64,000 nt of DNA from a virus (IMGVR_UViG_3300033146_000394:1-64000); one strand, 5' to 3'. Counted from the first letter of the stretch, positions 321 to 59,902 are shown. Translations and numbers: made by a program. The notes: a model not told the origin generated them from the letters alone.

Positions 321-1565
321 ATGTTTATGGTTTTAAAATTTAAAAATTACATCAAAGAAACAACAGATAATCCTATTAGTACATCAAAAATAGATGTATC
401 AAATAAAGCATATTATTCAGAAGATGCTATAACATTTGGATATATTCCCGAAAGTGAATATTATTTTGATAGACAAAATATTGAAGAATATGAAATGATT
501 TCTGAAGAAAGACCAAACAACCCTTATTATTTAATTCAATTAAAAAAATTAAAAAAATATGCTAAAACTCATTATGATAAGATTTTTTATGGATATGACA
601 CACAAATAACATATGATGAATATATTGATAAAATATCAAAATTACCAACAATTACAGAAGATGTAGATGAACCACTTATTATATATGTTTCTAAAATAGG
701 ATCTGAAATTACACATAATGTATCATATACTAGAGAAGATTTTATTTATCCAGGAAGATTGTGGGTAGATGCATACTATATTTCATTTTGGAAATACCCA
801 GAAAATAATAATAAACTATTAAAAATAATAAGTGATATAAATAAAGCATATAAAATCATATTTAACTATAATCTAACATTAACAAATAATATTAATGTTG
901 AATTATCATATGATTGGTCAAAACATAATCATAAAAATGATGATTTAGACGATTATGTTATTAAGGCAAAGGACTATGTAAAAAACAGTGTAAAAACAAA
1001 TAAAACCATTTTAAATACTCCACATAATGAGAGAGATTATAAAAAACGAAGACAATGGTATTCAGATAATGAGTATAAATCTAAAAAATCAGAATGGAAA
1101 AAATGGATGAAACCATTTGAAAATTATATATTTAATGATTTAGAATATTTGTTCTTAGAGAATGGGTTCACAGAAAATGAATTAAATGATATAAAAGAAA
1201 CAGGGTACTTTAATAATATTGAATATAGTAATAATAAAATAAAAATATATAGATCATTATCCTTACCAAAACATAAAGTAATAGTATTTTATAACAACAT
1301 TGATGATATTGGAGAATATTGGTCTTTAAGATCGGACTTAGGACCAGTTTGGGGAAGAATAGCTCAAGATAATTTGATGTTCCCAAAAGAAGAAATTATA
1401 GATATTAAATGTCACTCATATATACAAGCTAATGAGATAGATTGGGTGATGATGAGATATGCATATGATGATGATTTTCATAATTTCACAGATGAAAAAG
1501 AAATAAGAATAATTAATTTCGGTAAAAATATTAAAGATATTAAATGCGAAAACATTAAATATTAA
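321..1565 (+). CDS. hypothetical protein (414 aa)
   Basis: Long ORF in an AT-rich background; no recognisable motifs. Confidence 0.5.
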   Translation: MFMVLKFKNYIKETTDNPISTSKIDVSNKAYYSEDAITFGYIPESEYYFDRQNIEEYEMISEERPNNPYYLIQLKKLKKYAKTHYDKIFYGYDTQITYDEYIDKISKLPTITEDVDEPLIIYVSKIGSEITHNVSYTREDFIYPGRLWVDAYYISFWKYPENNNKLLKIISDINKAYKIIFNYNLTLTNNINVELSYDWSKHNHKNDDLDDYVIKAKDYVKNSVKTNKTILNTPHNERDYKKRRQWYSDNEYKSKKSEWKKWMKPFENYIFNDLEYLFLENGFTENELNDIKETGYFNNIEYSNNKIKIYRSLSLPKHKVIVFYNNIDDIGEYWSLRSDLGPVWGRIAQDNLMFPKEEIIDIKCHSYIQANEIDWVMMRYAYDDDFHNFTDEKEIRIINFGKNIKDIKCENIKY

Positions 1566-2481
1566 AATCAATTGATGTTCCAATCATTGAAAACTCAGAC
1601 AATATATTTTTTAATATATCTTTAATACCACTATGATATGGTTCGGATTTTATTATGTTTTCTATTGTTTTATATACACTTACACCATTCGGACCATTTA
1701 ACATATGTTTTATTTTTAATATATTATTTTTGTGAGATTTATCCTTATATGTAATACCATCATCTGTATTAGATATTAAGTTATTTATTAACATTTTATT
1801 GTCTATATGTTTATATACTGTATCATATATTTTTATAAATAGTGATAATTTTGCTTTAAATGTTTTATTTTGTTTAATGTCAGAATTAAAACCTTCAATA
1901 TATTTAAAAATTTTTAAAAAATTTACTATTTCTTTTTTTGTATGATATTCCAAAGTTCCAATACTATTAGTGATTTTCCTAGCGATTGTTTTATTTACAA
2001 CTAATCCTTTTTTTATAAAATACATAAATTGATCATATTTATAAAATGAATAAGATAATAATTCATTATTATCTTCTTCAATATTTACTCCCATATCATC
2101 AATTAATGTATCAAATACTGTTTCATCGAAAAAATTATGAAATCTTATATAAAAATACACTAAATTCCAATCATATTTATCAACTAATGGTCTCATTCCC
2201 TTTGATATATAAAAATCAAAGCATTCTTTATTTTTACAGCCAAATAACATATTTCTATCAAATTGGTCTAATATTATATCATCATCAACGTGATTTAAAA
2301 TATAATTTATATATTGTTTATTTTTTGATTTTTTTGCATCTTTTAATAATCTCATTTTATCTTTATTTATTATCTTATTAAATAAATCTATATCTTTTTC
2401 TCTTGTTATTTTAAGTATTGATATGATTGTATCTATATCAAGTGATAAATTTTCTAATATATAACTATTATATTTTTTCAT
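1555..2481 (-). CDS. hypothetical protein ending in C-terminal DFNI
   Basis: 308-aa ORF; its 3' end carries the GATTTTAATATTTAA motif encoding DFNI-stop. Confidence 0.5.
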   Translation of the reverse strand: MKKYNSYILENLSLDIDTIISILKITREKDIDLFNKIINKDKMRLLKDAKKSKNKQYINYILNHVDDDIILDQFDRNMLFGCKNKECFDFYISKGMRPLVDKYDWNLVYFYIRFHNFFDETVFDTLIDDMGVNIEEDNNELLSYSFYKYDQFMYFIKKGLVVNKTIARKITNSIGTLEYHTKKEIVNFLKIFKYIEGFNSDIKQNKTFKAKLSLFIKIYDTVYKHIDNKMLINNLISNTDDGITYKDKSHKNNILKIKHMLNGPNGVSVYKTIENIIKSEPYHSGIKDILKNILSEFSMIGTSIDFNI

Positions 2482-2536
2482 AATACTATATATAAAAATT
2501 TAAAACAAAAGAAAAACATATAACATATAATAAGAT

Positions 2537-2920
2537 ATGAAATTTAAGGAAAATTATTTATATCATTCATATTTAAAAGGTGAATTAGAAAATGGAATTA
2601 AAGAGATTTTTAAACACCACTATCGTGTAAACTTATTAGGTGGTTTTAAAAAAATAATAGAATTTTTTATTAAATATCACATAGATGATGATGATTATAA
2701 TATGTTTATTTTTGCGCTTTATTATAGAATTGGAATAGAACATATTGATATAGAAACACTATATAATTATTTAGTGAATAATTTTGATAAACAATTAGAT
2801 ATATGTAAAAAAGAAATTAATATTGATACCGAAGCAATGGTAATTGGTATATTAGCAAGCAATTATTTAACACATATAAGAATTAATAAATTAAAAACTA
2901 TTCTGAACCAAGTAATTTAA
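2537..2920 (+). CDS. hypothetical protein
   Basis: 127-aa ORF. Confidence 0.35.
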   Translation: MKFKENYLYHSYLKGELENGIKEIFKHHYRVNLLGGFKKIIEFFIKYHIDDDDYNMFIFALYYRIGIEHIDIETLYNYLVNNFDKQLDICKKEINIDTEAMVIGILASNYLTHIRINKLKTILNQVI

Positions 2921-58298: not shown

Positions 58299-58300
58299 AT

Positions 58301-58867
58301 ATGGCAAGTTTATATTTTAGATATTCGACTATGAATGCTGGGAAAAGTTTAGATTTATTAAAAGTAGCACATAATTATGAAGAACGACATAAAAAAGCAT
58401 TAATATTAACATCTGCATTAGATGATAGATATGGTCAAAACAAAGTTAAAAGTCGCTTAGGTGTAGAGAAATATGCATTAGGAGTTAAAAAAGATGATAA
58501 TATATTATTAATAGATGATTATAAATTATATGATTGTGTATTAGTTGATGAAGTTCAATTTTTTACTAAATACCAAATATATCAATTATCTGATATTGTA
58601 GATTATTTTAATATCCCAGTTATTTGTTATGGATTAAGAAGTGATTTTAAGAATGAACCATTTGAAGGTAGTTTGTATTTAATGACTATTGCAGATAAAA
58701 TAGAAGAATTAAGGTCTATTTGTTGGTGTGGTGCAAAAGCTAGTATTAATTGTAGAATAAATGATAATGAAATAGTTTATGATGGAAACCAAGTAAAAAT
58801 TGGGGGGAATGAGTCATATATTACATTATGTCGTAAACATTATAAAGAGGGTAAAATGAATAAATAA
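58301..58867 (+). CDS. tk: thymidine kinase (TK1 family)
   Basis: P-loop YSTMNAGKS, LVDEVQFF, and C-terminal Zn ribbon C..C...C..H typical of type II thymidine kinases. Confidence 0.8.
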   Translation: MASLYFRYSTMNAGKSLDLLKVAHNYEERHKKALILTSALDDRYGQNKVKSRLGVEKYALGVKKDDNILLIDDYKLYDCVLVDEVQFFTKYQIYQLSDIVDYFNIPVICYGLRSDFKNEPFEGSLYLMTIADKIEELRSICWCGAKASINCRINDNEIVYDGNQVKIGGNESYITLCRKHYKEGKMNK

Positions 58868-58885
58868 TTATTTATATATAATCAC

Positions 58886-59902
58886 ATGAAATATTTAATA
58901 ACAAAATTTAAAAATTATTATAATCATATTAATGAAAGTTATAATGTAGAAAATATAAATTATGATGAATCTATTATAGATTCATTTTATAAAGATAATT
59001 TTGATTTTTTTAAAGAACATGGTTTAAGTAGTGTTATTGATAATTTTAAATGGGGTTATATATATCAAAGTGTTGATGAATTATCATTAACAAATGATTG
59101 GAAAAAGGATTATATTGAAAATAGAGATAATGATGATTTAATTGATTATATACAAGAATATTATAATGAATATTATAATGAATATAAATCAAAATACATT
59201 GAAAATATAAATAAATTATTTATTGAAAGTTTTAGTGGGGGGCAAGATGATGAATTTGATGAAAAATTTGATTTTGATAAAACATATAAAGATTATAATT
59301 ATTTTGATAAAGTTGAAAAAATATTTAATTATGATGAAAGTTATTTAATTGATATTGTTGAGAAATCCCATTTTTATTCTTGGGTTTGGGATAAAAGATA
59401 TGATAGCGTGTTCGATTATATTAATGAAATATATATGGATCCAGATAATATAGAAGATAAAAGCTCAGATAATTATACCGAAGCAGTTTCTACATATTTC
59501 ACTGTAATTGAAAATTATATTGATGAAAAATATTTAAATAAAATATGGATTTCTAATATTAGTGCAGAAGTGGAAAAAATATATTATTTCGATAATAATA
59601 AATGGTCAGATGATTTTATTGATAATTTAATTGATTATGATTTAAATAATATTATATATATATTTAATGATATATCAAATATCACGTATTTTAATACATA
59701 TGAGCACCAAAAAGATTTAATAATAAGTATGTTTAGATATGAATCAGATATTAATATTACTGAATCAGATAATTATGATAAAGATTATTATTTACCAGAT
59801 ATATTATTTAACATAAATGAAAAATATAATTTAGTTGACGAAATTAAAAAAGAGTATAATACTTATATTATAAAAATCACAACAAACGAATTTAATATTT
59901 AA
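58886..59902 (+). CDS. acidic hypothetical protein ending in EFNI
   Basis: 338 aa, D/E/Y-rich; 3' end GAATTTAATATTTAA. Confidence 0.45.
   Translation: MKYLITKFKNYYNHINESYNVENINYDESIIDSFYKDNFDFFKEHGLSSVIDNFKWGYIYQSVDELSLTNDWKKDYIENRDNDDLIDYIQEYYNEYYNEYKSKYIENINKLFIESFSGGQDDEFDEKFDFDKTYKDYNYFDKVEKIFNYDESYLIDIVEKSHFYSWVWDKRYDSVFDYINEIYMDPDNIEDKSSDNYTEAVSTYFTVIENYIDEKYLNKIWISNISAEVEKIYYFDNNKWSDDFIDNLIDYDLNNIIYIFNDISNITYFNTYEHQKDLIISMFRYESDINITESDNYDKDYYLPDILFNINEKYNLVDEIKKEYNTYIIKITTNEFNI

Follow-up and report, generated by a model that had tools for sequence, protein, structure and literature searches.

A shared C-terminal [FY]-N-[IL] end on unrelated proteins of an AT-rich huge phage and its putative role as a portable tag

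Why would proteins with little else in common stop on the same three residues? This question is raised by a 64,000-nucleotide stretch of viral DNA (IMGVR_UViG_3300033146_000394:1-64000, referred to as the window), in which nine open reading frames (ORFs) encode proteins ending Phe-Asn-Ile (FNI) directly before the stop codon. An earlier interpretation, the sequence-only reading, had described this end as [DE]FNI on nine unrelated proteins and proposed either a peptide signal or a shared 3'-end RNA element. Herein, we report that the shared end is real, that selection acts on the peptide, and that a broader form, x-[FY]-[ND]-[IL]-COOH, occurs at the ends of genes in related phages. Genes and proteins with this end are called tagged below.

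The shared end and the level of its selection

All nine ORFs were found where the sequence-only reading had placed them, and 9/9 end in FNI-stop. The proposed [DE]FNI form holds for eight; the exception is 9761-10201(-), which ends IFNI (..VDIFNI). Tail statistics for the window were based on approximately 81 genes. Amino acid composition predicts 0.044 FNI tails per 81 genes, compared with the nine seen (Poisson P(≥9) = 1.8e-18). When C-terminal tripeptides were tabulated, FNI occurred nine times and the next most frequent tripeptide twice. At the DNA level, the exact 15-mer GAWTTTAATATTTAA has six copies in the window against 0.07 expected, and all six lie at gene ends. A looser 12-mer, TTTAATATHTRA, has 14 copies against 4.25 expected, nine of them gene ends and the other five at chance level. 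A six-frame scan of the window returned 23 FNI-stop occurrences, and the 14 outside the nine genes fall in stretches of at most 77 codons that lack a Met.

The reading frame was examined with 120 unrelated viral contigs containing the same 15-mer, which were scattered single hits from a scan of viral contigs. In these controls, the 15-mer ended an ORF in 20 of 120 cases (17%, with about 1 in 6 expected for random strand and frame), compared with 6/6 in the window. None of the control contigs carried a second tail. The observation of a shared C-terminal end is confirmed.

The claim that the peptide is selected, and not a DNA element, was upheld: the motif is always in frame, nothing is shared past the stop codon, and codons change while the peptide is kept. 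Across 32 tails from the window and its relatives, Asn is encoded by AAT 25 times and AAC 6 times, and Tyr by TAT 6 times and TAC twice. The last codon is TTA 13, CTA 2, TTG 1, ATT 10, and ATA 6 times, and the stops are TAA 25, TGA 6, and TAG 1. Amino acid changes are only conservative (F/Y, N/D, and I/L). TTT (Phe) never serves as the last codon, though it would be compatible with an A/T-only DNA motif. Because the tail peptide is kept while its codons vary synonymously, selection acts on the peptide. The nearly invariant DNA described at the stop is present in the window and is what codon bias alone predicts (TTT 88%, AAT 88%, GAT 93%, GAA 91%, and TAA in 71/81 stops). DNA 3' of the stop showed no conservation across the nine sites.

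RNA folding at the nine stops did not bear out a shared 3'-end RNA element. The hairpin described at 54848 does exist (minimum free energy of -24.8 kcal/mol, z = -5.5) and uses the motif as an arm, but it is the only one of the nine to do so. The remaining sites fold no better than shuffled sequences, except 59902, whose hairpins exclude the motif. A nucleic acid element that is translated by accident could be part of a terminator, a promoter -10-like T(T/A)TAAT, a recombination site, or a bidirectional stop. Several details would fit such an element: T(T/A)TAAT encodes [FY]-N, the genes convergent at 1555 and 44437 use stop codons on the reverse complement of the motif, the tail overlaps the following start codon in arrays, one tail is a terminator arm, and the potential for 5'-3' duplexes is slightly higher in tagged genes. 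This raised mRNA complementarity was put down to their A/T-only ends. Against such an element stand the single frame (6/6 versus 1 in 6 in the controls), the chance-level frequency of nonterminal copies, the lack of any conservation past the stop, the lack of a motif-containing hairpin at 8/9 sites, and the frequent synonymous and stop variation with changes confined to F/Y, N/D, and I/L, while the invariance in the window is codon bias. Moreover, in four of the nine cases the gene facing the tail is convergent. A DNA or RNA element is therefore already largely refuted, and we regard it as extremely improbable.

Carriers of the tail in the window and in related phages

The window has a G+C content of 21-26%. 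It comes from a huge phage with AT-rich DNA (22% G+C) that is of the T4/'Mahaphage' kind. Homologues of its type II topoisomerase occur on metagenomic contigs of up to 736 kb, and the closest relatives by this protein are 69-79% identical. The best match among GenBank phages is the 735-kb uncultured huge phage LR756501, with 55% identity. No close relative of the window was found among the IMG/VR and GTDB genomes searched.

Conservation was followed in the family of the first tagged protein, encoded at 1555-2481(-). An exhaustive HMMER search returned nine relatives at E values up to 0.001, of which eight were retrieved, and these homologues are 22-36% identical to the window protein in the alignment. 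The window protein ends DFNI, and the homologues end DFNL, KFNL, KFDI, QFNI, KYNL, KFNI, KYNL, and NFNL, so 9/9 fit the broader motif. Within the alignment, the F/Y column at -3 ranks 13th and the N column at -2 ranks 12th of 289 for conservation (top 5%). [DE]FNI thus captured the core but was too narrow, as the real form is x-[FY]-[ND]-[IL]-COOH with position -4 not fixed. An AlphaFold2 (AF2) model built from the nine-sequence alignment reached a predicted local distance difference test (pLDDT) score of 81.6 and shows an all-helical repeat fold, with weak Foldseek matches to ankyrin and armadillo repeat proteins. Its last helix spans residues 298-304, DFNI (305-308) is coil, and residues 1-6 are of low confidence. 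Because of this coil tail and these low-confidence first residues, both ends look like exposed linear motifs and not like parts of the fold. A single-sequence AF2 model of the ankyrin protein encoded at 39988-40422 had a pLDDT of 51 and was unusable.

Tails of the form [FY]N[IL] were also counted on contigs of related phages, where at most 0.1 per contig is expected by chance. The contig L140 (13.2 kb, 22.7% G+C) has 12 such ends among 25 genes, arranged in two tandem arrays. L142 (20.9 kb examined of a 93.7-kb contig, 27.6% G+C) has 3 among 31 genes, all KYNL. L123, whose topoisomerase is 76% identical to that of the window, has 3 among 17, all FNL, and L138 has 1 among 31. More distant relatives sampled around the topoisomerase (L121, L124-L136) gave zero tails. 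In the 735-kb phage, 2 FNI tails were found among 406 ORFs in the 293 kb examined, which is near chance. One of its proteins, of 98 residues (MIKKYKIFETKDNL...KIFNI), has only the first 14 residues and the FNI end in common with an L123 protein. With FNI in the window and FNL in L123, a single variant for each genome was considered as a sign of co-evolution with a reader, but this idea was weakened by L140, which mixes FNI, FNL, and YNL.

Pooling 35 tails gave L 19 and I 16 at -1, N 33 and D 2 at -2, F 26 and Y 9 at -3, and K 16, D 7, E 5, and N 3 at -4; an acidic residue occupies -4 in eight of the nine window tails. Weaker preferences were seen for a small or aliphatic residue at -6, a hydrophobic residue at -9/-10, and an aromatic residue at -12. 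This spacing suggests an amphipathic helix that would run into the tail. Example tail peptides from carriers are YKKYISIDDFNI and EQDSKKYNL.

Several side observations concern these contigs. At L140 4220-4909 and 11658-12119, a rhomboid-family protease gene lies between two tagged-gene arrays, and one tagged protein is made of MORN-like repeats (YYLYG..H..G.PAY). In L123, an out-of-frame start at 3811-3890 reads MITNFKIFEENND just 5' of the FNL-tailed ORF 3611-3811, itself a tandem paralogue of 3336-3611 (MITSFKIFESDDNL..); this oddity is probably a frameshift or an assembly error. The L142 contig (93.7 kb, IMG/VR) carries an array of 10 tRNA genes at 17807-20905, one of them called with a four-base anticodon.

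The nine tagged proteins of the window are mostly small and acidic, with a median pI of 5.2, and tagged proteins as a whole span 66 to 344 aa. The gene at 1555-2481(-) encodes the 308-aa ankyrin-like helical repeat protein modeled above, ending ..TSIDFNI, with its tail codons and stop at 1555-1569. At 9761-10201(-), a 146-aa protein (MIKTFKLFEEN...VDIFNI, Ile at -4) matched no Pfam or PHROG family. The 71-aa product of 24716-24931(-) ends ...KTILDFNI, and its stop overlaps the convergent gene 23925-24719. Two tagged genes are adjacent: 39320-39991(+), with 223 aa ending ...KINEFNI, uses ATA for Ile, and its TGA stop overlaps the ATG of 39988-40422(+) at the junction AATATATGA. The latter encodes 144 aa ending ...IKISEFNI, with ankyrin repeats at residues 18-99 (Ank_2, E = 8e-12), and is tied by blastp to the 1555 family through L140 7271-8233. 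The gene at 44039-44437(+) encodes 132 aa (MKYIKIYEEF...SIDDFNI) and overlaps a convergent patatin-like gene by 11 nt. The 158-aa product of 54848-55324(-) ends ...KKASDFNI and is the sole case of tail codons serving as a terminator-hairpin arm. The last two are 56802-57218(-), with 138 aa (MIKYFKLFENK...AVSDFNI), and 58886-59902(+), a very acidic 338-aa protein (pI 4.2) ending ...ITTNEFNI. Among 5.8 billion proteins, each of these two matched only itself, with no relative beyond its own contig. Two tagged proteins searched with tblastn against GenBank phages gave no match, and PHROGs and Pfam assigned no function to the tagged proteins except ankyrin.

A possible tenth member is 41343-42158(+), which encodes 271 aa with a C-terminal Phage_lysozyme domain (E = 7e-21) and ends ..KKSFDL, the F-D-L variant. 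With 80 genes expected to yield 0.29 such tails, this match could be due to chance. The gene 41050-41328(+) encodes 92 aa in which ..EWYDFNI is followed by 11 residues, KVNKFKYIQEE, with AAA after ATC where tagged genes have TAA. Loss of the stop codon from a formerly tagged gene may explain this sequence.

The sequence-only reading had also stated that none of the nine shares more than the tail. This stands for most pairs, but 1555-2481 and 39988-40422 are both ankyrin-type, and all nine share an N-terminal hydrophobic-x-Glu. Clustering of 31 tagged proteins with blastp gave at least 20 clusters. With the last 5 residues removed, the C-terminal 20 or 50 aa of the tagged window proteins show no greater similarity to one another than to those of untagged proteins (p = 0.16 and 0.09). 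For the N-terminal 21 residues, the similarity among tagged proteins is slightly higher (p = 0.02). The best pairwise z-score among tagged proteins, 4.2, came from an out-of-register alignment. Simple paralogy through a shared C-terminal domain was not seen past the last residues, with the ankyrin-type pair as the exception. The tagged genes of L123 have no homologue in the window, and a candidate homology of 24716-24931 to small L123 proteins was not significant.

The carriers could still be one ancient and extremely diverged paralogous superfamily that keeps only its ends, which would then have an intramolecular or structural role, such as termini clasping, with no external reader. Tagged genes do stand in tandem arrays (L140 1312-3982 and 10657-13014; window 39320-40422), the N- and C-terminal signatures are both shared, and two window members are ankyrin-type. 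Moreover, relatives hold true paralogue families with kept ends. At 71-16425, L132 encodes seven paralogous leucine-rich-repeat proteins of 115-318 aa that all start MKYLKYFEN and have a common 60-aa C-terminal domain ending EEFDWLFNAIDMGLM, which has no Pfam match and occurs twice in one member. The other such family is an ADP-ribosyltransferase trio in L128. However, most pairs of carriers have no similarity outside their ends, and the 66-344 aa range places an ankyrin-like solenoid beside small and apparently different proteins. In the AF2 model, the ends are unstructured or of low confidence and unpaired, which does not favor clasping. By eye, the FNI tail resembles a shortened form of the L132 C-terminal domain, but a hidden Markov model (HMM) of that domain matched no window protein. 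Even if common ancestry were true, conservation of the ends alone would need a function. We consider this origin decidedly unlikely.

At L128 1865-3503 and 4917-6146, the trio of tandem ART-PolyVal ADP-ribosyltransferase paralogues, which end NINENI or NINENV, is accompanied by a fourth paralogue with a fused Tpt1/KptA-like domain. The N-termini of all four are of the MKYL(K/R)EYNEYL type. These 'polyvalent protein'-type enzymes thus have the same kind of N-terminus as the tagged proteins but another C-terminus.

A putative address and its candidate readers

The results shown above, namely enrichment, strict frame, conservation through divergence, spread over at least 20 unrelated clusters, and no flanking DNA or RNA element, concern the tail itself. 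Unrelated folds retain the same tripeptide with its free carboxylate, and from this we infer that one C-terminus-binding partner reads all carriers. The tail would then be a portable short linear motif, x-[FY]-[ND]-[IL]-COOH, on a short flexible end past the last helix, and would work as an address or docking signal for this putative common reader. In a clade of huge phages with AT-rich DNA, the tag may mark a large pool of small accessory proteins that turns over fast; this pool includes ankyrin-like repeat proteins and many proteins without detectable relatives. Our best explanation, a peptide-selected portable tag with a common partner and preferably a role in virion loading, is put forward as a tentative one.

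A possible second signal lies at the other end of the proteins. The common N-terminus MIK[YT]FKLFE noted earlier for 9761-10201 and 56802-57218 was found as described, and an MKY(L/I)K.FE-type signature is present on all nine tagged proteins of the window and on most of the 31 tagged proteins. A hydrophobic-x-Glu pattern falls within the first 18 residues of 9/9 tagged proteins, compared with 22/72 other window proteins and 31% of internal windows; the Fisher P of 7.7e-5 is only indicative because the pattern was chosen after viewing the data. In the extended tagged set, 29/35 proteins have this pattern.

The capsid targeting sequence (CTS) of phage T4 is MKTYQEFIAE. It guides internal proteins that otherwise differ widely into the prohead core (PMC3012670, PMC5694885), and the prohead proteases of T4-like and giant phages cleave after Glu in x-X-E motifs (PMC5694885). 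The tagged set resembles the T4 proteins IPI-III and Alt in that a short terminal peptide alone is common to diverse, fast-evolving small accessory proteins (PMC3012670). The tagged N-terminus, M-K-x-x-x-x-F/Y-x-E, also ends in hydrophobic-x-Glu like the CTS protease site. In contrast to the CTS, an N-terminal peptide that the prohead protease cleaves off, the tag is an extreme C-terminus of another sequence. Encapsulin cargo offers a C-terminal parallel, as short C-terminal peptides on unrelated proteins dock inside an HK97-fold shell (PMC10960027, PMC8229669). The tag is likewise a C-terminal extension, found on at least 20 unrelated clusters, and in the AF2 model it follows the last helix as coil. 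However, the consensus differs, and encapsulins are cellular compartments. Eukaryotic addresses such as PTS1 -SKL and -KDEL, also of three to four residues at the very C-terminus of unrelated proteins, are an analogy only, as their sequence, machinery, and domain of life are all unlike those of the phage tag.

We prefer virion loading of diverse accessory proteins as the role of the tag because the N-termini are CTS-like, the phage is T4-related, and the T4 internal proteins offer a precedent, with encapsulin cargo peptides as a further one, although we hold this role to be doubtful. The tag and the N-terminal MKY(L/I)K.FE-type signature would direct diverse proteins into the assembling particle for delivery with the DNA. 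A fuller and still more doubtful version is a two-ended address, in which a CTS-like propeptide and the [FY]-N-[IL] tag load dozens of effectors into the capsid for co-injection, the C-terminal tag docking to the interior or core of the capsid in the manner of encapsulin cargo peptides. The effectors would be ankyrin-like binders, possibly a lysozyme, and many proteins without relatives. New effectors would be recruited by acquiring both ends through junction recombination. In the arrays, the tail overlaps the next start (..AAT ATA TGA..; FNI-stop over M-K-Y), which provides conserved junctions where recombination could move both ends, and new genes may gain the tag at such tandem-array junctions.

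Several points weigh against virion loading. The N-terminal signature was chosen post hoc in a proteome rich in K, I, N, and F, and it also occurs on unlikely cargo, such as the VWA/metallopeptidase-like protein 26499-28196. The T4 N-terminal targeting sequence is enough alone, and we know of no precedent in phage head assembly for a second, C-terminal signal. Packaging tags on 11-46% of genes would imply dozens of packaged protein species. The comparative evidence comes from short metagenomic contigs. Expression signals add little in favor of loading: none of the nine tagged genes has the Bacteroidota-type early promoter box, and a TATATA-type motif lies directly 5' of five of them and also of the tail-tube gene, a weak point, as its 172 copies in the window are too common for a promoter class, and it was dropped as a statistic for this reason.

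Alternatively, an AAA+ protease, either the phage FtsH-like AAA+/M41 enzyme or a host protease, could read the tail as a signal for degradation or docking. The tail would serve the timed destruction of tagged proteins, or the carriers would be adaptors whose ankyrin or other binding modules bring host targets to the enzyme. The AAA-protease gene pointed out in the sequence-only reading is present. The ORF 62228-64000(+), which runs off the window end, encodes a soluble AAA+ ATPase fused to Peptidase_M41 (E = 1.3e-15; HEAGH) with AAA and ClpB_D2-small domains and no membrane segment at its N-terminus. An SPFH/Band-7 protein is encoded at 18376-19224(+), and bacterial SPFH proteins (HflK/C) regulate FtsH. 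Recognition of C-terminal tails such as ssrA by FtsH, ClpXP, and Tsp is established, and the phage tail resembles these degrons in its free C-terminus with hydrophobic residues at the last position and two before it. Other jumbo phages have FtsH-like genes as well; among GenBank phages, the only matches to the M41 part of the ORF are FtsH genes from Pseudomonas jumbo phages of the PA5oct-like group. The AAA+/M41 gene has no homologue in the tail-poor 735-kb relative, but this co-occurrence of tail and gene comes from one genome pair. The tail is polar at -2 (Asn) and usually charged at -4, whereas classical FtsH/ssrA-type tails are nonpolar, and it is gene-encoded, whereas ssrA is added by transfer-messenger RNA (tmRNA). 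A search for a tmRNA with a tail-matching tag found none. An early-type promoter would be expected for proteins needing clearance, and 0/9 tagged genes have the Bacteroidota-type early promoter box described below. Taken together, we judge a protease reader unlikely.

A sliding-clamp-binding epitope is another C-terminal signal with a precedent, since T4 gp43, gp33, and gp55 carry a short interchangeable clamp-binding motif at the extreme C-terminus for one partner (PMC2988020). The window comes from a T4-related phage (gp32-like, gp19-like, type II topoisomerase, and family B polymerase genes), its tail is acidic and hydrophobic at the extreme C-terminus of mostly small acidic proteins, and, as in T4, unrelated proteins have a common short C-terminal motif. 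However, the polymerase ORF 45375-47129(+) ends KDIIYDDFWD and its L122 homologue (201-1307) ends EIEYDDFWD, neither of them FNI. Position -4 is mostly Lys in the relatives, so the motif is often basic there and not acidic. The 9-12 clamp clients per 13-64 kb would be far above any known system. We consider clamp binding very unlikely. A class II PDZ ligand, suggested earlier, shares the hydrophobic-x-hydrophobic-COOH form ([FY]-N-[IL] in 33/35 tails and [FY]-D-[IL] in 2/35), but PDZ class rules do not require the middle Asn present in those 33 tails. Pfam scans of approximately 50 window proteins matched no PDZ domain.

We found no description of this C-terminal motif in full-text literature searches. 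Diverse phage proteins with terminal targeting peptides have been described; to our knowledge, this C-terminal tag has not, nor have its density and its spread across the clade. The genomes of huge phages hold hundreds of genes without a known function. A tag marking 10-45% of genes in some regions would sort unknown huge-phage genes into a functional class and point to one partner. If virion loading is true, the injected effector repertoire of an uncultured clade would be readable from sequence, and the tag would offer a minimal signal for packaging foreign proteins. If a degron or adaptor is true, it would indicate phage-controlled proteolysis around a phage-encoded FtsH-like enzyme. Either way, the tail clearly illustrates the spread of a short linear motif over unrelated proteins in a virus of bacteria.

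Neighboring genes, host, and other recurrent motifs

The window encodes a fused type II topoisomerase, a family B polymerase fragment, a helicase, a MoxR-like AAA protein, and the VWA/metallopeptidase-like protein. Also encoded are a gp32-like single-strand-binding protein, a gp19-like tail tube, a phage lysozyme, a patatin-like protein, a thymidine kinase, and a DNA methylase, along with a sigma-70-type factor, the SPFH protein, and the soluble AAA+/Peptidase_M41 (FtsH-like) protein. No capsid gene is among the genes of the window, no clamp gene was recognized in its 64 kb, and no prohead protease gene was seen. The polymerase ORF 45375-47129(+) covers only part of a family B polymerase. The gp32-like protein (37400-38365(+)) ends DDFFEFDD; its tail and that of the polymerase are acidic-aromatic, of the T4 type, and distinct from the FNI tag.

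The topoisomerase of the window is a single fused gene of 1089 aa with a TTG start codon. In several relatives it is split into two ORFs (L132 9995-14714, L129/L130 4713-9199, L131 9995-13747, and L123 9221-10696). L132 and L129 have an ORF of 326-390 aa between the topoisomerase halves, and the L132 copy begins MKCKCLICDKEF.

A box, TAnnTTTG(C/T)A, lies 28-43 nt 5' of the start codon in seven window genes: 2898-3650(-), 9157-9696(-), 11541-11717(-), 16157-18334(+), 23294-23866(-), 28689-30383(-), and 47173-47841(-). Its sequence fits the -7 box of the Bacteroidota primary sigma factor, and the host therefore probably belongs to this phylum. The distribution of the box suggests that the seven genes are a probable early-gene set. 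Most remaining window genes are preceded by a T-run together with TATATA(A) or TTAATATATAA motifs.

An N-terminal signature, MK(x)xxF/YxxF..(N)E, found as MKLKRFNDFLVNE, MKYLKYFEN, or MKIQKFNE.., stands at approximately 25 of 81 gene starts in the window, with or without the FNI tail. Window examples are at 54483, 55328, 26499, 30527, and 38459, and the signature also occurs in L126, L128, L132, L140, and L142. It is similar to the T4 CTS propeptide, whose cleavage site is hydrophobic-x-Glu.

A second motif recurs near C-termini, R-x-x-K-L-(K/D)-x-(I/L)-(L/N) followed by 1-4 residues, with the window form ..KLKTIL... Of the 6 KTIL copies in the window proteome, 5 fall in the final 14 residues. 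Window genes with this motif are 2537-2920(+), 4252-4422(-), 10226-11068(-), and 11274-11510(-). In relatives, it was found in L138 (approximately 9 genes), L140 9533-10138, L132 22223-22810, L129 17269-17890, and L126 17616-17912. This second motif spans the whole phage group, including the relatives that lack FNI.

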